Shown one piece after another: positions 27,579 to 58,177 of a stretch of DNA of 64,000 bases; position 1 is the stretch's first letter, and every line of letters starts with the position of its first letter. The translations under genes were made by a program, and so were the position numbers. Source of the stretch: Escherichia phage SSBS18_WS_10_728. The stretch is from the sequence record MT322327.1. The stretch is one strand, 5' to 3'. Below the pieces are notes generated by a model. The model searched no databases, was not told the origin of the DNA, and saw only the letters and a program-made list of their open reading frames with translations.

Positions 27579-28994
27579 TTACCAGATGTAACGGTCAATC
27601 ATTACTGCTTTGAGCATTACGCTGGTTGGGTCAAACTTCTCACCACCAAGCAGAGCTTTTAAAGTGGCTGGAGAGAACCCTGATACCATTGCTACACCGT
27701 TATCCTTAACAGATACTTCGCAAGTACCATTACGGTTTGCTAAGTACCAGAATACCAGTTGTGGCATTTCGTATCCAGCTTTTTTGTACTTACTACGAAT
27801 TGCTTCAAAGTTTGTACGACCATTTGCACCATCAACCTGATTAAACTCCATATCAGAGAAGATGATAAGCTTACTTGGCATATCTTTCTGAGTCAAGTTG
27901 TTTCTCTTACCTGTCTCAAGAATACGGTCAAAAGCTGCTTGTAAATTAGTTGAACCATACTCAACATGACGCATCACCTGACGATGACGGTTTCGTAAAT
28001 CACCACTCAGTTCGATGAAGTGAGGGTTTGTTGAGTAAACCATTAACTCATTCTTAAAGCAACCAGTATTGCGTTCTGCTACATACAAGGCAAGTGATAC
28101 ACCAATATCAAGTGCAGTGATTGAACCAAGATTCACCCAAGACATTGAGCTTGAAACATCAGTCATACACAAGATGTTCTCACCTTCTGCCATCCAGTTT
28201 GGTAGTGCTTTCCACTGCTCATTGGCAACATCTGCATTACCATGTTTGATAGACTTAATCACATCGTATGGGTAAACAGCACCAGCGTTAATCTTAGCCT
28301 CACCCTTTGAGAGTGACTCGATGTAAGCTTTGTAACGTTCTCCATCTTTACGGTTAAAGAGTTTTTGGTAACGTGCAGCAGCAAGAGAAGGAATCTTACT
28401 GTAGTCGATTTTACCAAACTCATTAGCAGAGATTTTTTGCTCAACTGTATCAGAAAGTGCAGACAACAGTGTGCGGTACTCTTTCTCACTCAAGTTAGCA
28501 AACTTGCAGAAACGTTTTACAAACTGTTTGTGGCGTGGTTTTACTCGTGGTAACCACTTGGCTGCTAAACCTGCTGTTTCAGGGTCTAGTAATGCTGCTT
28601 CTAAGTGCTTAAAGGCATCTGTCTCAAAACGAGTACCTACGAAGATTTTGAAGTCATCAAAACGACCAAGCTCTGCAATCTTATCCATAATGCGAAGAAC
28701 CTGTGTAGGCTCTAAAACTTTATCTTCAATTGCTTGAAGTAAAACAGTTCTGAAGGCTTTACGCTCACCCATACCTTCTCGTACATCTCGCATGTGAAGC
28801 AAAATACGAACTGCAACATCAACATCCTCACGCAAAGCTTTGTAGAACAAATCTGGTAAGATTTCTACATTACTACGGCTGGAACCAGCAGCTTTGTAAA
28901 AGTCCACAAGAGCAGACATTGATGAAGTATGGTTTACAGCACCATTTTCAGTTCGACCTGCATGAAGGTGCGCATGTTTAAATAATTCGCTCAT
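27579..28994 (-). CDS. vWA-domain protein with MIDAS motif; possible Ro60/Rsr-like
   Basis: 471 aa; N-terminal ~260 aa helical region plus C-terminal vWA-like region with DxSxS (CMTDVSSSMS); TROVE/Ro60 relationship is inference only. Confidence 0.55.
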   Translation of the reverse strand: MSELFKHAHLHAGRTENGAVNHTSSMSALVDFYKAAGSSRSNVEILPDLFYKALREDVDVAVRILLHMRDVREGMGERKAFRTVLLQAIEDKVLEPTQVLRIMDKIAELGRFDDFKIFVGTRFETDAFKHLEAALLDPETAGLAAKWLPRVKPRHKQFVKRFCKFANLSEKEYRTLLSALSDTVEQKISANEFGKIDYSKIPSLAAARYQKLFNRKDGERYKAYIESLSKGEAKINAGAVYPYDVIKSIKHGNADVANEQWKALPNWMAEGENILCMTDVSSSMSWVNLGSITALDIGVSLALYVAERNTGCFKNELMVYSTNPHFIELSGDLRNRHRQVMRHVEYGSTNLQAAFDRILETGKRNNLTQKDMPSKLIIFSDMEFNQVDGANGRTNFEAIRSKYKKAGYEMPQLVFWYLANRNGTCEVSVKDNGVAMVSGFSPATLKALLGGEKFDPTSVMLKAVMIDRYIW

Positions 28995-30704: not shown

Positions 30705-31076
30705 ATGAAGGCTAAGAGTGCAAAAGACTTTTATTGCTTCCTACAATCCTATATCAATTCCGTGGAGAAAGGTGATAGATATAATCTTAAAGATGTTATT
30801 ACATCACCTTTAACATGGAGACTTAGCAAATGGCCTGAAGAAGATATCACACCCACTAGTAAACAACCTACCTACATCCCAGATATTAATCTCCCAGATT
30901 CAGATAAGTTATTGTACCCAATGTTCCACATTGTTGGGCTTGGTACATTTCTTATGGATATCCAGTATGTAATTGGTAAGGGTTATAAGGTTGAAGGTAT
31001 TGTTGTTGGTGATGTATCTCCACAACATAAAGGCTATTTTAGATTAAACGCACGTTTAGAGGCTAAAAAGAAATGA
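30705..31076 (+). CDS. hypothetical protein, paralog of N-terminal domain of the Ig-like repeat protein
   Basis: 123 aa; alignable by eye to residues 1-120 of the next ORF (shared YxPDxxxPxSDxLLY and MDxQYxI motifs). Confidence 0.5.
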   Translation: MKAKSAKDFYCFLQSYINSVEKGDRYNLKDVITSPLTWRLSKWPEEDITPTSKQPTYIPDINLPDSDKLLYPMFHIVGLGTFLMDIQYVIGKGYKVEGIVVGDVSPQHKGYFRLNARLEAKKK

Positions 31077-32206
31077 TTAAAGCAAAGACTTACCCAGACT
31101 TCAAAGAATTTGTAAAAGGTTTCGTTGCAAATGTAAAGGCTGGTAAGAGATATGATTTTAGAACATATCAAGAAGCTATTTTACCACTCACCTATAGCTC
31201 ATATTGGCCTGAAGCTGATATTGCAGAGGTTGAGAAGTTTGACTACAAACCAGACTACAAAGTTCCTTTCAGTGATGAACTTCTTTACAGTGTTGGTGCA
31301 CAGATGAGAACTGCTGATTTCTTCATGGATTTACAGTATGCAATCATCAATGGTAAAGATGTTGACACAGTATATTGTGAATGGTTGGCAAGAGTTAAGC
31401 CGTTCTCAATGTTGAATGCTAAGTTGAAGGATGCCATTAAGCCACCAGTAATTACTCAGCAGCCAACAAACCAAACAGTCAATGAGGGTGGAGCACTTAC
31501 CCTAAGTGTTCTCGCAACCAATGCCACTGGGTATCAATGGAAGAAGGATGGTGAGGATATCTCAAGTGCCACTTCTGCAACTTACACAAAACAGTCGGTA
31601 GCTCCTTCTGATGCTGGCTCATACACTTGCGTTGTGTCTGGAGAGGGTGGAACAAGTGTCACCTCAGATGCAGCAACAGTTACTGTTAACGCACTACCTG
31701 TTATTACCAAGCAACCTTCTAGTCAGACTATCAATGAAGGTGGGAACATCAACTTAGCAGTGACTGCAACAGGTGCAACTGGTTACCAATGGAAGAAAGA
31801 TGGTGCTAACATCCCTTCAGCTACGAAGGCCAACTACAGCAAATCTGGTGCGCTTCCAGCAGATGCAGGTTCTTACACATGTGTTGTGACTGGTGCTGGA
31901 GGTTCTGTTACTTCTAGCCCTGCAACAATTACGGTAAAGGCTTTGCCAGTTATCACTCAACAGCCAGCAAATCAAGAAATCACTGAAGGAGAGACCTTAA
32001 CGCTGAATGTTGTGGCTACTGGTGCAACAGGTTATCAGTGGAAGAAAGGTGAGGAAGTCATCCCAGACGCAACTGCTGCAACTTACACCAAAGAAGGTGC
32101 AACCGCTGCTGATGCAGGAAGCTACACCTGTGTAGTGACTGGCGCAGGTGGCTCTGTAACATCTAATGCAGCAACAGTTACAGTTAACCCAACAGGGGAG
32201 GCATAA
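31073..32206 (+). CDS. Ig-like domain repeat protein (three tandem Ig-like domains)
   Basis: 377 aa; three ~80 aa repeats PVITQQPxNQxxNEG...ATGYQWKKDG...DAGSYTCVVTGAGGSVTS...ATVTV. Confidence 0.6.
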   Translation: MIKAKTYPDFKEFVKGFVANVKAGKRYDFRTYQEAILPLTYSSYWPEADIAEVEKFDYKPDYKVPFSDELLYSVGAQMRTADFFMDLQYAIINGKDVDTVYCEWLARVKPFSMLNAKLKDAIKPPVITQQPTNQTVNEGGALTLSVLATNATGYQWKKDGEDISSATSATYTKQSVAPSDAGSYTCVVSGEGGTSVTSDAATVTVNALPVITKQPSSQTINEGGNINLAVTATGATGYQWKKDGANIPSATKANYSKSGALPADAGSYTCVVTGAGGSVTSSPATITVKALPVITQQPANQEITEGETLTLNVVATGATGYQWKKGEEVIPDATAATYTKEGATAADAGSYTCVVTGAGGSVTSNAATVTVNPTGEA

Positions 32207-32670
32207 TGCAACTCTCAAGAAAAGGTTTAGAGGCTATTAAGTTCTTTGAAGGTCTGAAGTTAGAGGCTTACAAAGATTCTGCCGGAATCCCAACAATCGG
32301 GTATGGTACAATCCGTATTGACGGGAAACCTGTTAAGATGGGTATGAAAATCACGGCTGAACAAGCTGAACAGTATCTTCTCGCAGATGTTGAAAAGTTC
32401 GTTGCAGCAGTGAATAAAGCTATCAAGGTTCCAACTTCTCAGAATGAGTTTGACGCACTTGTAAGTGAAACATACAACATCGGTATCACAGCTATGCAGG
32501 ATTCTACATTTATCAAGCGCCACAATGCTGGTAATAAGGTAGGTTGTGCAGAAGCTATGCAGTGGTGGAACAAGGTCACAGTCAAGGGTAAGAAGGTCAC
32601 TTCAAACGGACTGAAAAACAGACGTAGAATGGAAGCTGACATTTATCTTGACAGTGTATACCCAAAGTAA
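32206..32670 (+). CDS. endolysin, GH24 lysozyme family
   Basis: 154 aa; EGLKLEAYKDSAGIPTIGYGT catalytic region typical of T4/lambda-type lysozymes. Confidence 0.85.
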   Translation: MQLSRKGLEAIKFFEGLKLEAYKDSAGIPTIGYGTIRIDGKPVKMGMKITAEQAEQYLLADVEKFVAAVNKAIKVPTSQNEFDALVSETYNIGITAMQDSTFIKRHNAGNKVGCAEAMQWWNKVTVKGKKVTSNGLKNRRRMEADIYLDSVYPK

Positions 32671-32680
32671 TATCTTCATA

Positions 32681-45374: not shown

Positions 45375-46160
45375 TTAGTTCTTTGCGCCTAAAAAGGTAA
45401 CTTCTGGTGAAGAGAAAATTTCCTCAACATTCTCATCAGTTCTTGCATAGATATATGTGTCTGCATCACTGCCAAATGTTACTGCAATTCTGTGATTGCT
45501 CTTCGACAGGTGGGTAACTAGAGCGTTACTTAGAGACATCTTTTCAACCGGAGGGTTACTTTGATGTATCTCGCCTTTTCTTCGTCTGAAGAGGGTAACT
45601 GCATCATCAGTGAACGTTACTACACCTGCAAAGTATTCTGGTTCACAGTAGTTCTTCCAACCTGAGCGTAACTTGTGGTACATCTCCCCTTCGTAGACAT
45701 ACAGATACACATCTACACTCTTCATCACCTGATTAATGATAACGGTAACGGCTTGAGGGTCCAGTCCACCGATACCTGCACCAATCATAGGTAACCCAAC
45801 TTTCTTCAACTGATTCACTTCACAGTATCTGTTAAACTGTTTCAAAGATGACTCTAAAGCACTGTATCGAGCATCTTTACCAGTCTTAAGCTGAGTGTAA
45901 AGGTTAGCTATACGGCCTTGTTTTAAACGTGCTACAGAGAAATTGCCTAGTAAATTCTCACAGGGCTTGTGGCCTATTCCACCTGCATACAGATAAACTT
46001 CTGTATCAGTCTCATATGCTTTTGGGTAAAGTTTAGAAATCTTGTCAGCGATACCTGCACCCATTAAGTTCATACAGTTGCAACCGTGACCGATGACGTC
46101 AAACTTACCTTTATCAAATGCTGCAAAGATATCACCATTGATAATTTTTACAATACCCAT
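45375..46160 (-). CDS. macrodomain protein, TARG1/DarG-like
   Basis: 261 aa; N-terminal GDIF...DVIGHGCNCMNLMGAGIA resembles TARG1/OARD1-type macrodomain signature. Confidence 0.55.
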   Translation of the reverse strand: MGIVKIINGDIFAAFDKGKFDVIGHGCNCMNLMGAGIADKISKLYPKAYETDTEVYLYAGGIGHKPCENLLGNFSVARLKQGRIANLYTQLKTGKDARYSALESSLKQFNRYCEVNQLKKVGLPMIGAGIGGLDPQAVTVIINQVMKSVDVYLYVYEGEMYHKLRSGWKNYCEPEYFAGVVTFTDDAVTLFRRRKGEIHQSNPPVEKMSLSNALVTHLSKSNHRIAVTFGSDADTYIYARTDENVEEIFSSPEVTFLGAKN

Positions 46161-53904: not shown

Positions 53905-54242
53905 GTCCAGTTAACGAGGATGCCATCGAAACCTTTTGCTAAAGGTACACCCTCGTGTTCATAAAACTCAGGATTAACTTCGAATCCACGATTTTCAATA
54001 TACTCTATCATGTATTTCATTACAAAGCTAATCTCTTCGTAGTCATCTGGGTCTCTGCCAAAGAACTGTTCTATGACAAACATACCTTCTTTTGTAGCAA
54101 ATTGGCAGTGATGATTGTAGACACCTTCACAAAACTTTTCAAACTTTTCTTTACCGAGAACTTCAAGGATGTCTGTATAGGCAACTTGTAAGTATTTCGG
54201 TTGTACAGGTTTCTTGTTAAACCATATGGAAAGGTTGTCCAT
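53898..54242 (-). CDS. hypothetical protein
   Basis: 114 aa ORF. Confidence 0.35.
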   Translation of the reverse strand: MDNLSIWFNKKPVQPKYLQVAYTDILEVLGKEKFEKFCEGVYNHHCQFATKEGMFVIEQFFGRDPDDYEEISFVMKYMIEYIENRGFEVNPEFYEHEGVPLAKGFDGILVNWTW

Positions 54243-54257
54243 AGCATTCTCCAGAAA

Positions 54258-54280
54258 TTAAAAAGGCTCCCGTAGGAGCC
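54258..54280 (-). terminator. intrinsic terminator
   Basis: Hairpin GGCTCCTACGGGAGCC followed by UUUUUAAUUUC on minus strand, after NAMPT-like gene. Confidence 0.65.
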
Positions 54281-54295
54281 TCTTATCATATACTT

Positions 54296-56095
54296 TTAAA
54301 GCTGCTTGTCAATATTATTTCGAATATCACCAAGAGTTGTGTAGCCGAACTGCTCAGAGTCGCTAAAGACCAAGCGTAAAGCACAAGCTGGGTGTTCAAG
54401 TGCATCTGCAAAGCTTTGGAACCCATAGCCATCTACAGCTTTCAGATTTTCACCATCCCACATAGGTGCTACACCACCAAAAGCAGACTTCTTAACACCG
54501 CTGTCTGTTTTAGGGTCTTTTGCAAGCATAATCTCTTTACCACCAATGCTTGCCAGAGTTGCTTTAACAGCAAATGCAAAGGTGTCACGAGTCATGTACT
54601 GGTAAGTGTAAGAACCTACACCAAACACTACGTTAGAGCTTGCAAAACCCATTTCATACAAACGTTTCAGGATTTCGTTTGCACGTTCCAACGTGATAGA
54701 GTCACCATAAATAAGCCCGATATGCTCATCCAGTACTTTAAAGCCTTTAGAGTTGATAGTTCCTCCAAAGATATTATACAGTGTCTTGATAGCTCCATCA
54801 ATCTCCGCTACAGGACGTGTGACAACGTTTGCAGAACCAACCATATAAGCGTTTTTCAACAGCACTGTATCAGCAACTTCAAAGTCTTCTCTGTCAACAA
54901 CCATTTCGTAGCCTTCTGACAGTAGCCACCCAGCAATACCATAGTTGATGTTTTCAAGCTTCATGTTCAGAACAGCATTCAACATTGTGTCGCTGGCTTC
55001 CAGCTTGCTTAGGTGTTCGTAATAAGCCTTTTTAGCACACTCTAAGTGGATTGCTTTATAGCCTGTGACAATATGTACAGGGTCTCCAGAGTCAGGACGA
55101 ATTACCAGTTTGCCATCACGTTCCATAATCTCTTTACGGAGTTCTGGGAGTATCACTGATACAGTTCTCCAGAAGTTATAAGTATCTGAAACAACACTTG
55201 CAATACCAGTTGGGTAAGTTTCTGTTAAGAAACGACGGAAGGTTTGTAACTCACCTTTAAAGCGTCTTTCTTCTTCAATCAACTCATTCCCACCTTCCCA
55301 AGCAATGTTTGCACACATGACAGAGTGCTCGGTGGCTGGTACAGAACTACCAATATCAGAGATTGGGTAGGACTGCCCATAGATGCGTTTAGCTGTATAC
55401 ACAGCAGGGAAGCTATCAGTCCCTTTAAAGCTGGTTAAGTGACCTACAGCGTTAAATGCGTCATCAGTAAAGCCGGACATACCACGCATAGCAAAATCAT
55501 GGCACTGATAAGGTAAATGTAAGTCATTGTCACAAGTAAGGTCAGACCACTTCTTACAGATACGTTTGTAGTGCAATGCAATAGTTGCAATGGTACAAGC
55601 CTTCCAAATCTCAGCAGAGAAAGCATCTTCCAGATACCCCGCTACCCAATGGAAACCTGAAACAGTGTTCTGGAAGACAACCATTGGTACACGCATAGGA
55701 ACAACTGTGCCTTCTTCTACAGCGTATACTTCAACTGGTAGATAACCTAAGTCGTGAAGTGCTTCCCAATGTTCTCGACCAATAGCATCTTTACCCAGAA
55801 CACCGTTCATGACTTCTAAGATTTCGTCAATTGCTTCTTTTTTGTCACGTTCAAAGAAGGTGGCGTTCCAGTGGTCTATCAAGTAATCTTTAACAAAACG
55901 TTGAATACCAAAAGCTACTACACCATCAATTGCTAAAGGGCTGTTAAACCATTTATCACTACGTGGTGTCAGGTTAAACATCAAGTACTCTGTCGCACTA
56001 GGATACTGATAAATATGGCCAGACTTGTAAGCATCCGCGTTTAAACCTGCTGGTACTGCATAAAGTGATTTAGTCATCTTTTTAATCTCTCTCAA
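54296..56095 (-). CDS. nicotinamide phosphoribosyltransferase-like protein (NAMPT/NadV family; possibly Namat)
   Basis: 599 aa; NAMPT-family character along full length; adjacent to Prs-like gene. Confidence 0.75.
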   Translation of the reverse strand: MREIKKMTKSLYAVPAGLNADAYKSGHIYQYPSATEYLMFNLTPRSDKWFNSPLAIDGVVAFGIQRFVKDYLIDHWNATFFERDKKEAIDEILEVMNGVLGKDAIGREHWEALHDLGYLPVEVYAVEEGTVVPMRVPMVVFQNTVSGFHWVAGYLEDAFSAEIWKACTIATIALHYKRICKKWSDLTCDNDLHLPYQCHDFAMRGMSGFTDDAFNAVGHLTSFKGTDSFPAVYTAKRIYGQSYPISDIGSSVPATEHSVMCANIAWEGGNELIEEERRFKGELQTFRRFLTETYPTGIASVVSDTYNFWRTVSVILPELRKEIMERDGKLVIRPDSGDPVHIVTGYKAIHLECAKKAYYEHLSKLEASDTMLNAVLNMKLENINYGIAGWLLSEGYEMVVDREDFEVADTVLLKNAYMVGSANVVTRPVAEIDGAIKTLYNIFGGTINSKGFKVLDEHIGLIYGDSITLERANEILKRLYEMGFASSNVVFGVGSYTYQYMTRDTFAFAVKATLASIGGKEIMLAKDPKTDSGVKKSAFGGVAPMWDGENLKAVDGYGFQSFADALEHPACALRLVFSDSEQFGYTTLGDIRNNIDKQL

Positions 56096-56123
56096 AATGG
56101 GGCTTGTAAGCCCCTATAAAGTT

Positions 56124-57026
56124 TCAATCAATGGTTACTACAGTAACTTGTGCATAATGTGTTAAGCCACGGTCTTTAGCTTCCCCTAAAGAGTTTGTAG
56201 TGTAGATATGGTCAATACCATTGTCAAGTAAGTTTTCAACCCCTTTAGAGAAAATGCCATGAGTTACATAGAGTTCCACACGTTTTGCACCTGCTTCACG
56301 AAGATGTTTAGCTGCCTCTATGAAGGTTCGACCACCATCACAAATATCATCCAGAATCATGACGGTTTTATCTGTCAAATCAACATCATCAAGGATTCGC
56401 ATACCAGTAATTTCACCAGTCTTAAGGTTGCGTACTTTAGACATTGTGATATATGGTTTATCCACCTCTTTAGCAGTCTCTTCAGTCTTCTTAGCTGCAC
56501 CTGCATCTGGGGCTACCAAGAAATCAATGCGTGGGTCACTTGCAAAGTGTGCTGCTACATCTTTTTGCTTCATGCTCTGAAAGCACTTAAATAAGTTTTC
56601 TGCAACATTACTGTGAGGGTCAAGAGCACATACTGCATCAAAACCCATTGCATTAACGAGGTTGGAAAAAGCTTTCAGTGCTGCTGAATCACCTTTGAAC
56701 ATATGGCGGTCATATCGAGCATTCGGTAAGAACCCGAAAACAACGGTTTTCATCGCTGATTTGTATGGAACAAGGCTGTCAACGGCATCCTTAGCCAAAG
56801 CTAATGCAAACAGTGTATCTTTATCATATCCCTGCACAGTCAATATAACATTGTCAATCTTACCAGCATTACGCTCAGTAAACTTAACAAAATCTTCAGA
56901 GAAGTTTCCACCAATTTCTCCAGATGGGAATTGGATGATATTAAATTTTTCTGTGTGGAAGAATTTCTCTTGTGCGGTGACAACGGCTTCAATAATAGTT
57001 TTCATAGCTCTCTCTCTCTTAATCAA
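56124..57026 (-). CDS. ribose-phosphate pyrophosphokinase-like protein (Prs family; possibly Adps)
   Basis: 300 aa; PRPP-binding loop VMILDDICDGGRTF. Confidence 0.75.
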   Translation of the reverse strand: MIKRERAMKTIIEAVVTAQEKFFHTEKFNIIQFPSGEIGGNFSEDFVKFTERNAGKIDNVILTVQGYDKDTLFALALAKDAVDSLVPYKSAMKTVVFGFLPNARYDRHMFKGDSAALKAFSNLVNAMGFDAVCALDPHSNVAENLFKCFQSMKQKDVAAHFASDPRIDFLVAPDAGAAKKTEETAKEVDKPYITMSKVRNLKTGEITGMRILDDVDLTDKTVMILDDICDGGRTFIEAAKHLREAGAKRVELYVTHGIFSKGVENLLDNGIDHIYTTNSLGEAKDRGLTHYAQVTVVTID

Positions 57027-57324
57027 AAGTTACGTTTGTTACTGCCATTGCAGATTTGCATTTTGCAGGGTCTACAACGTGATAAAGTACACTACAGTTG
57101 CCTGTGCTGTCTGGTACAGGTTTAACCCATTGTTGCTTGACAGTTGGTTCTCCTAAGTCTTTGTAAGAGCCATCTGTAAAATTGTTTACCATCTCAAGTG
57201 CAATTGGTTCTGGAACATGACCACGAATCATATACATCTCACAACCATTTCCAGCATCACTTATTAGGTCTTTTATTTCCCAATCTGCTTTAGCCATTGT
57301 AAGTTGCCCTATAAACTGTCTCAA
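57019..57324 (-). CDS. hypothetical protein
   Basis: 101 aa ORF. Confidence 0.35.
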   Translation of the reverse strand: MRQFIGQLTMAKADWEIKDLISDAGNGCEMYMIRGHVPEPIALEMVNNFTDGSYKDLGEPTVKQQWVKPVPDSTGNCSVLYHVVDPAKCKSAMAVTNVTFD

Positions 57325-57805
57325 ACTTCAACAGGAGAGATATTGCCAAATCTGTATAGTTGTTGTCAAGCACATCTGGCATATTATTTTTGATATATTT
57401 CTCTTGCTCTTCATAGGTCATCTTAGGAATGCTTAGGAGTCTATCTCCTTGCTTCTGGTTATCAGCTTTAGTTTGGATAAACCAGTTTGCACAGTGATGC
57501 TCGCCACCTTTTGTAACAGGCTTGTGGTGACCTAATGTGAAGGACTGGTTACCTGTGTACCTACAAAGCTTATTGAGCACTGCAATGGTGTTCTTAACAA
57601 CAAAACATTCATACAGGTTGTCTATGGTGTAATATGGATAATAGCGGAATAGTGCTCTTTCACGAGTACTATCACGATTCCAGAGAATCATGTGATTTGA
57701 GTTAGAAGGGTCGTATTGGTGGGAGTCAATGAACTCTTGACGTTCCTCAAAGCTTAGTCTTAGAACTGACATTGCAGCCGAACGTTTTAGATTTGACAGA
57801 TACAT
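57290..57805 (-). CDS. HNH endonuclease
   Basis: 171 aa; HNH motif LGHHKPVTKGGEHHCANWFIQTKADNQKQ. Confidence 0.6.
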   Translation of the reverse strand: MYLSNLKRSAAMSVLRLSFEERQEFIDSHQYDPSNSNHMILWNRDSTRERALFRYYPYYTIDNLYECFVVKNTIAVLNKLCRYTGNQSFTLGHHKPVTKGGEHHCANWFIQTKADNQKQGDRLLSIPKMTYEEQEKYIKNNMPDVLDNNYTDLAISLLLKFETVYRATYNG

Positions 57806-57856
57806 TTTATCTCCAAAATAAAAAGGGAACCTTTACAGTCCCCTTATAGTATCTGT

Positions 57857-58177
57857 TTACTGAGCTACTTTCAAGATGCTTGTGAACGAGATTTCACTCT
57901 CATCCATAAACTCTTTTGCTTCTCCAGTAACTTTTACAAAGTTATCTAGGCAGATAATCTTCTTATCTTTCTTGCTGTAGGTTAGTTTAACCTTTTCAAT
58001 ATCTTTCTTAGAGCTTTCCTCTTCATTGAAGAGTTTTACAGCTTCTTTGAATGGTAGATATGAGCCGTCATCATCACTAATGAACCCTGTACCACAATAG
58101 TAGTAGTTATGTTCTTTAGCCATAAACTGGCACAGTACGAAAATCTGTAATTTACGAGTGTTATAAACTTTGCTCAT
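57857..58177 (-). CDS. hypothetical protein
   Basis: 106 aa ORF. Confidence 0.35.
   Translation of the reverse strand: MSKVYNTRKLQIFVLCQFMAKEHNYYYCGTGFISDDDGSYLPFKEAVKLFNEEESSKKDIEKVKLTYSKKDKKIICLDNFVKVTGEAKEFMDESEISFTSILKVAQ

Follow-up and report, generated by a model that had tools for sequence, protein, structure and literature searches.

We analysed a 64,000-nucleotide stretch of Escherichia phage SSBS18_WS_10_728 (sequence record MT322327.1; hereafter the window), in which a preliminary description had singled out two adjacent minus-strand open reading frames (ORFs), at 56124-57026 and 54296-56095, as a Prs-family gene directly upstream of a NAMPT-family gene. Both ORFs are present as described: the first matches Pribosyltran and Pribosyl_synth in Pfam and phrog_619 'ribose-phosphate pyrophosphokinase' (E 5e-98), and the second matches NAPRTase and NAMPT_N in Pfam and phrog_448 'nicotinamide phosphoribosyl transferase' (E 8e-202). 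We call the two genes adps and namat (Table 1) because, judged by their sequences, they are orthologues of the published type case of NARP1, the near-identical gene pair of phage Bas63, and hence belong to a system that is already known. With high confidence we regard the locus as NARP1, the pair (Adps and Namat) with which this phage would reconstitute nicotinamide adenine dinucleotide (NAD+). The preliminary description had put the pair forward as a candidate module of this kind; the NAD+ reconstitution stands, whereas the candidate status does not, as the Bas63 pair has already been published.

Table 1. Features of the adps-namat locus and related features elsewhere in the window
Feature	Position	Strand	Description
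Promoter-like site upstream of adps	57823..57874	-	TTGAAA-17-TACTAT, abutting a terminator-like hairpin
Two conserved genes upstream of adps	57019..57805	-	171 aa (57290-57805, phrog_3500) and 92 aa (57019-57297, phrog_4726)
adps	56124..57005	-	Predicted ADP-ribose pyrophosphokinase (synthetase of pyrophosphorylated ADP-ribose, ADPR-PP), Prs family, 293 aa; Bas63_0079 orthologue
Intergenic hairpin	56099..56114	-	GGGGCT-TACA-AGCCCC between adps stop and namat start, followed by a weak T-run (ATTTTG)
namat	54296..56077	-	Predicted nicotinamide ADP-ribose transferase, NAMPT family, 593 aa; Bas63_0080 orthologue
Selectivity-clamp loop (SCL) of Namat	55925..55969	-	Residues 37-51, TPRSDKWFNSPLAID, with K42-W43
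Ounavirinae-specific α/β subdomain of Namat	54797..55060	-	Residues ~340-427
Selectivity-clamp helix (SCH) of Namat	54584..54616	-	G488-S-Y-T-Y-Q-Y-M-T-R-D498
Promoter-like site in the namat 3' end	54285..54312	-	TTGACA-16-TATGAT (11/12), abutting the terminator
Intrinsic-terminator-like hairpin after namat	54261..54284	-	AAGAGGCTCC-TACG-GGAGCCTTTT with T-rich tail; ends the unit
Macro-domain protein	45375-46160	-	261 aa; PF01661, 29.5 bits; phrog_335 'phosphatase'; ~8 kb from the pair

A megablast search with positions 54000-57400 returned 258 phage records (218 of them with query coverage of at least 80%), nearly all from Felixounavirus or other Ounavirinae of Escherichia, Salmonella, Shigella and Citrobacter, which places the window in the genome of a FelixO1-like myovirus (Felixounavirus). 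Its nearest DNA relatives, at the top identity of 95-96%, are Salmonella and Escherichia Felixounaviruses. As the region is kept in more than 200 Felixounavirus genomes, at 90-96% DNA identity, the two ORFs are conserved genes and not chance ORFs. Escherichia phage JohannRWettstein (Bas63, MZ501086.1) is 93.5% identical in DNA across the locus, and both of its proteins align over their full length with those of the window, with 280 of 293 residues identical (96%) between Adps and bas63_0079 and 578 of 593 (97%) between Namat and bas63_0080. Gene order and context are also equal to those of Bas63, with rIIA downstream of the pair and nrdG/nrdD upstream. Osterman et al. (bioRxiv 10.1101/2024.02.11.579819) recognise NARP1 as an Adps-clade Prs-family gene within 10 genes of a Namat homologue; in the window a gap of 46 nt separates the adps stop (56124) from the namat ATG (56077), both genes share a strand, and they are orthologous to an experimentally validated pair (Bas63_0079/Bas63_0080).

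While the ORFs themselves stand, the TTG starts first given for them (57026 and 56095) do not. The start of adps is most likely ATG 57005 and that of namat ATG 56077, each of which gives a full-length fit to the Bas63 annotation; a GAGAGAGAGAG run of the GAGAG Shine-Dalgarno type ends 2 nt before the adps ATG, and GAGAGAG, likewise of Shine-Dalgarno type, lies 8 nt before the namat ATG. We rejected TTG 57026 because it is still within the final codons of the gene before adps, which ends with TAA at 57021-57019, and TTG 56095 because it lies 4 nt past the intergenic hairpin and the Bas63 alignment begins at ATG 56077. The preliminary description had also called the NAMPT-like protein unusually long at 599 aa. 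It is indeed long, owing to a lineage-specific insertion, yet 6 of those residues are a start-codon artefact and the protein has 593 aa.

NARP1 was discovered with genes 79-80 of Bas63 (bioRxiv 10.1101/2024.02.11.579819). When the two genes were deleted, plating on SIR2-HerA cells fell by a factor of about 20 and NAD+ was no longer rescued; the rescue was independent of host PncC/NadR and held in a ΔpncC ΔnadR host, and ADPR-PP (m/z 720.010) was found in infected cells only when both Bas63 genes and the defence system were present (bioRxiv 10.1101/2024.02.11.579819). Because Bas63 Adps did not purify, the enzymology was done with the homologues from Bacillus phage SpβL1, which convert ADP-ribose (ADPR) and ATP to ADPR-PP, and ADPR-PP and nicotinamide to NAD+, with Namat preferring ADPR-PP over phosphoribosyl pyrophosphate (PRPP) (bioRxiv 10.1101/2024.02.11.579819); in all, the purified-enzyme biochemistry comes from SpβL1 and DyoEdafos homologues. 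The same authors report that NARP1 is ineffective against type II Thoeris while it cancels type I Thoeris, DSR1, DSR2 and SEFIR, that it occurs in 4.3% of phage genomes, and that 97% of Adps-clade genes adjoin Namat (bioRxiv 10.1101/2024.02.11.579819).

Applied to the window, the proposed mechanism would begin with NAD-depleting defences (SIR2-HerA/Nezha, type I Thoeris, DSR1/2, SEFIR and others of this kind) splitting NAD+ into ADP-ribose and nicotinamide. Adps, using ATP, would place a pyrophosphate on the free ribose of ADP-ribose, yielding ADPR-PP, and Namat would swap the pyrophosphate of ADPR-PP for nicotinamide and form NAD+ directly, a route in which both a nicotinamide mononucleotide (NMN) intermediate and an NMN adenylyltransferase (NMNAT) would be dispensable. 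The preliminary description, in which the Prs homologue 'phosphorylates ADP-ribose', had the right substrate but worded the reaction loosely, as Adps pyrophosphorylates ADPR to ADPR-PP.

In order to place the NAMPT-like protein we compared it with SpβL1 Namat, for which Lan et al. (PMC12774641) reported a structure and an adenine 'selectivity clamp' formed by a variable loop (SCL) and a helix (SCH). A Namat-type SCL carries Arg at its third position, or Lys or Tyr followed by a stacking residue, and where the third position is Lys the next residue stacks on the adenine, with Bas63 as the named example (PMC12774641). The segment TPRSDK42-W43 of the window protein aligns with R37-R40 of SpβL1 and is identical to that of Bas63, and K42-W43 would supply the adenine-stacking residue. 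Its SCH motif, GSYTYQYMTRD, is the published adenine-clamp signature of Namat (PMC12774641), and G488, S489, Y492, T496, R497 and D498 are invariant among 38 homologues. This clamp (K42-W43 in the SCL and Y490/Y494 in the SCH) would make Namat prefer ADPR-PP over PRPP. The NAMPT-type catalytic core is complete as well: when referred to the catalytic His and the ligand-binding residues of SpβL1 (R306, D308, D215, F189, R192, D13' and Y15'), the equivalents D15, Y17, F195, R198, D221, H251 (the catalytic His), R327 and D329 are all present and invariant among the same 38 homologues.

The best sequence matches in the PDB are the SpβL1 Namat entries 9w5w and 9w5x (E 1.7e-127), with NadV and human NAMPT far behind. 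An AlphaFold2 model of Namat (predicted local distance difference test, pLDDT, 93.3; predicted template-modelling score, pTM, 0.91) superposes best on the same two entries (TM-score 0.95 on target, E 3e-53), again ahead of NadV and human NAMPT. The structure prediction and active-site comparison that had been proposed for telling the two enzyme types apart thus came out in favour of Namat, with 9w5x/9w5w as the closest structures and with clamp and core residues in place, and sequence and model together support the assignment of the NAMPT-like protein as a Namat with an adenine clamp. As a side observation, chromosomal proteins of 495-497 aa in Enterobacterales (Klebsiella, Cronobacter, Kosakonia, Phytobacter, Erwinia), named 'nicotinate phosphoribosyltransferase', carry a Namat-type clamp, GS[FY]TYQYNTRD. 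Their best local alignments are 45-47% identical over ~55% of the phage Namat, one cluster holds 1,229 sequences, and they may be bacterial copies of NARP1 of the kind reported for Paenibacillus.

Adps is 25% identical to E. coli Prs and keeps the ARxDR, DxH, PDxG and DDxxD motifs. Among the NCBIfam models it passes just the broad subfamily model TIGR01251 (133.4 bits against a cut-off of 113) and fails the cut-offs of all Prs equivalogs, the best of which, NF002095, gives 109.8 bits against 296. Where the loop of E. coli Prs that binds the phosphate of ribose-5-phosphate reads DTGGT, Adps has D223-G-G-R-T227, and Adps of Vibrio phage IW18 has DGGAS at this position; the altered loop may bear on function. 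K190 (in MSKVR) aligns with the flexible-loop Lys of Prs in HMMER alignments (4twb, human PRPS1), and in a MAFFT alignment with E. coli Prs it lies one residue off. The catalytic lysine of SpβL1 Adps is K162.

The absence of an NMNAT was a further part of the preliminary description, and it held up. Neither a CTP_transf_like (NMNAT) nor a NUDIX domain was found by Pfam in the window ORFs scanned, which were most ORFs of at least 80 aa at 27.5-64 kb and most of at least 100 aa in the structural half; nrdD and the largest structural genes were taken from annotation, and a few ORFs of ~100-115 aa lay outside the scan. An NMNAT gene elsewhere in the genome, which had been named as a finding that would count against the proposal, did not turn up in Bas63: among ten hypothetical proteins of that phage encoded outside the window, Pfam gave just GIY-YIG and MazG-like matches, and in its annotation, records 1-58,750, there are a thymidylate synthase, a dihydrofolate reductase, a ligase, a polymerase, a primase/helicase, an exonuclease and NrdAB, with no NMNAT annotated. 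The reading of the pair as an NAD+ reconstitution, anti-defence module is supported by its orthology to Bas63 79-80, by the clamp motif and by the lack of a detected NMNAT.

Two other explanations have to be weighed against NARP1. In classical salvage, which we consider very improbable, the Prs-like enzyme would make PRPP, the NAMPT-like enzyme would make NMN from it, and host NadR or PncC/NadD would finish NAD+, so that the pair would be a general NAD+ booster. The names given by Pfam, PHROG and NCBIfam (Prs and NAMPT/NAPRTase) are those that salvage calls for, and SpβL1 Namat does convert PRPP to NMN in vitro if ADPR-PP is lacking; yet when given both substrates the same enzyme made only NAD+, and SpβL1 Adps showed no detectable PRPP synthesis, the conventional Prs activity. 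Salvage is also at odds with the ability of Bas63 to overcome SIR2-HerA in the ΔpncC ΔnadR host and with the appearance of ADPR-PP only with both Bas63 genes and the defence system, and in the window itself with the conserved adenine clamp of Namat and the sub-cut-off scores of Adps in the Prs equivalog models. Slightly less probable still is that the pair performs NARP1 chemistry mainly as housekeeping, recycling ADP-ribose and nicotinamide from any NAD+ consumer such as ADP-ribosyltransferases, which would agree with its near-universal presence in Ounavirinae (at least 253 records in three genera, whatever the host) and its place in a nucleotide-metabolism region beside nrdDG and nrdAB, but not with the lack of ADPR-PP in Bas63-infected cells without a defence system or with the plating of the Bas63 deletion mutant, which was reduced only on SIR2-HerA cells.

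Several points weigh against the NARP1 reading itself. The biochemistry comes from SpβL1 proteins that are ~38% identical to this Namat in a structure-based alignment, and the characterised enzyme lacks a subdomain of ~77-88 aa that the Ounavirinae Namat possesses. A side role in NMN synthesis is conceivable, since SpβL1 Namat keeps PRPP-to-NMN activity in vitro. To our knowledge no Adps structure has been solved and there is no published sequence criterion for telling Adps from Prs, which leaves orthology and synteny as the basis of the Adps assignment. Orthology, conservation of motifs and fold, operon anatomy and the lack of a detectable NMNAT were shown in this analysis; that the pair of this phage behaves like its Bas63 orthologues would follow by analogy.

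The extra length of Namat relative to the 491-aa SpβL1 Namat lies in two insertions, mainly in the second, which is predicted to fold as a subdomain. The first, of ~15 aa, is just past the catalytic His at about residues 258-275, and the second appears as an alignment gap of ~77 aa at residues 351-427, or as a subdomain of ~77-88 aa at residues ~340-427 when delimited by secondary structure. Namat homologues are between 495 and 610 aa long, and both insertions fall at hot spots where length varies among them. A tblastn search with the large insert matched 253 records, all FelixO1-like genomes by sequence, and in the annotated records nearly all matches fall inside NAMPT-annotated genes. Identity of the insert is above 87% within Felixounavirus and 43-53% in divergent records including Mooglevirus and Suspvirus, with its length unchanged. 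A few of the 253 records are deposited as Campylobacter or Staphylococcus phages; GU169904.1 'Staphylococcus phage SA1' and MG065668.1 'Campylobacter phage A126' are FelixO1-like, with 94-98% protein identity to the window, which suggests that they are mislabelled or contaminated deposits.

The 46-nt spacer between adps and namat folds as a whole at -12.6 kcal/mol, and among the window, Bas63 and EcSzw_1, the three sequences compared, the stem of its hairpin is invariant while the loop varies. In FelixO1, Moogle and phiSUSP1 a gene for a 163-aa HNH homing endonuclease sits exactly in this spacer (56078-56123 in the window) in place of the hairpin, at 1660-2151 in one of the three comparison loci and at 1625-2116 in the other two, and several further megablast records have the adps-namat region split as in FelixO1. 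The spacer is a homing-endonuclease insertion site. We considered the hairpin as a required regulatory element and rejected this, since the HNH gene replaces it in FelixO1, Moogle and phiSUSP1, and for the same reason the hairpin is dispensable for the pathway. That the pair has its own terminator, as the preliminary description had it, was borne out: the hairpin after namat has a 10-bp GC-rich stem and a T-run, folds at -16.6 kcal/mol and hardly differs among six Ounavirinae genomes from three genera (Felixounavirus, Mooglevirus, Suspvirus), with variation in the flanking bases. Both hexamers of the promoter-like site that abuts it are conserved across the three genera, and this site would drive the downstream genes.

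At the other end, the promoter-like site upstream of adps is likely the start of the transcription unit that holds adps and namat. There is no terminator-like hairpin between this site and adps, and the preceding gene stops 14 nt ahead of the adps ATG, from which we infer that the two genes are probably the last two of a four-gene transcription unit. FelixO1, Moogle and phiSUSP1 keep the order of the first two genes of this putative unit. A weak HNH-like match (phrog_2214, E 2e-4) was obtained for the 171-aa protein, and neither it nor the 92-aa protein was given a function by Pfam or NCBIfam. Members of the 171-aa family are found in Phapecoctavirus and Erwinia phages as well, whereas the 92-aa family is confined to Ounavirinae. 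In view of this distribution and the lack of a domain function we rejected the two genes as demonstrable parts of NARP1 and keep them as probable co-transcribed neighbours. A recurring module in the window consists of a sigma-70-like -10 hexamer 0-5 nt from a terminator-like hairpin, the two directly abutting at 54261-54312 and 57823-57874, with further modules near 32680 (+), 48006 (-) and 62150 (-). At such a module, upstream transcripts would terminate, and the promoter's own transcripts would start inside the stem and read through.

Accessory genes are known from other NARP1 operons, namely Adpp, a Macro-domain ADPR-1''-phosphate phosphatase that counters aRES (NARP1-AP, Vibrio phage Gary), and RyDEP, a RyR-domain glycosidase of mycobacteriophage DyoEdafos. 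We found neither Macro nor RyR domains by Pfam, PHROG or NCBIfam among the genes that flank adps and namat or lie between them, and the supplements of the aRES paper yielded no Felixounavirus or Bas63 entries. The sole Macro protein found is the one at 45375-46160, and in contrast to NARP1-AP no Adpp is encoded within the operon. The macro protein of Vibrio phage IW18, encoded inside an Adps-macro-Namat operon, is 95% identical to Gary Adpp; the first ~155 residues of the window protein share 28% identity with it (pairwise E 1e-14). Both proteins are taken in by phrog_335, a very broad family (~2,800 phage records, mostly T4-like Tk.4 proteins). The window protein has an Ounavirinae-specific C-terminal extension of ~100 aa, seen only in FelixO1-like phages; phmmer against the PDB gave OARD1/TARG1 and coronavirus Mac1, not Poa1p, and NCBIfam gave only a sub-threshold DarG-macro match. 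The protein could be an unlinked ADPR-1''-phosphate phosphatase that serves NARP1, or another ADP-ribose hydrolase.

A speculative extension, which we rate as rather unlikely, is that Felixounaviruses run an extended NARP1 in trans by means of this macro protein and that, separately, the Namat subdomain adds a regulatory or partner-binding role. If this were true, the macro protein would dephosphorylate ADPR-1''-phosphate and feed Adps, giving resistance to aRES-type defence without an in-operon phosphatase. Elsewhere in the window, a 471-aa protein with DUF2828 and DUF7788 domains is encoded at 27579-28994 (-), and a 377-aa protein with three tandem Ig-like domains at 31073-32206 (+), directly upstream of a phage lysozyme gene (32206-32670).

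Since the type example, the orthologous pair of Bas63, has already been published, the locus brings no new biology. It does show that a sequence-only reader can recognise NARP1 from the adjacency of the two genes and the absence of an NMNAT. In public records the matching pair is still labelled 'ribose-phosphate pyrophosphokinase' and 'nicotinamide/nicotinate phosphoribosyltransferase', and a search of NCBIfam for a curated Adps or Namat model found just Prs and NAPRTase models, as a result of which an anti-defence system goes under-reported in hundreds of Felixounavirus genomes that are candidates for therapy. Two modest leads that can be tested, the lineage-specific subdomain of Namat and the unlinked Adpp-like macro protein, concern how the pathway may be tuned in this group of phages.

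The locus can be set beside several known systems. Adps shares the fold and the core catalytic motifs ARxDR, DxH and DDxxD with cellular Prs (E. coli prs) but differs from it in its 25% identity, the unmet equivalog cut-offs and the altered ribose-5-phosphate loop. Namat likewise has the fold of cellular NAMPT (human, Xanthomonas) and keeps H251 and RPDSGD, whereas human NAMPT is ~24% identical and is without the aromatic clamp. NARP2 of Vibrio phage KVP40 (Nampt/NadV and Nmnat/NatV) also restores NAD+ with a phage NAMPT-family enzyme, yet it uses PRPP and an NMN adenylyltransferase, while the locus described here has the Namat clamp and no NMNAT was found at the sensitivity of Pfam. With NARP1-AP of Vibrio phage Gary (Adps-Adpp-Namat) the window has in common the Adps and Namat core and a genome-encoded phrog_335 macro protein, but here the macro gene is ~8 kb away and its product is 28% identical (to the IW18 homologue) and extended by ~100 aa at the C-terminus. 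NARP1 of SpβL1 (PDB 9w5w, 9w5x) has the same two-gene architecture, catalytic residues and SCH motif and a TM-score of 0.95 on target; it differs in its ~38% identity, in Arg40 of its SCL where this Namat has K42-W43, and in lacking the extra segments at ~258-275 and ~340-427. NARP1 of Bas63 shares with the window the gene order, the ~46-nt spacer with its hairpin, the flanking genes, the terminator, the Namat insertion and the clamp residues, and the two loci differ only by a few percent of sequence divergence.

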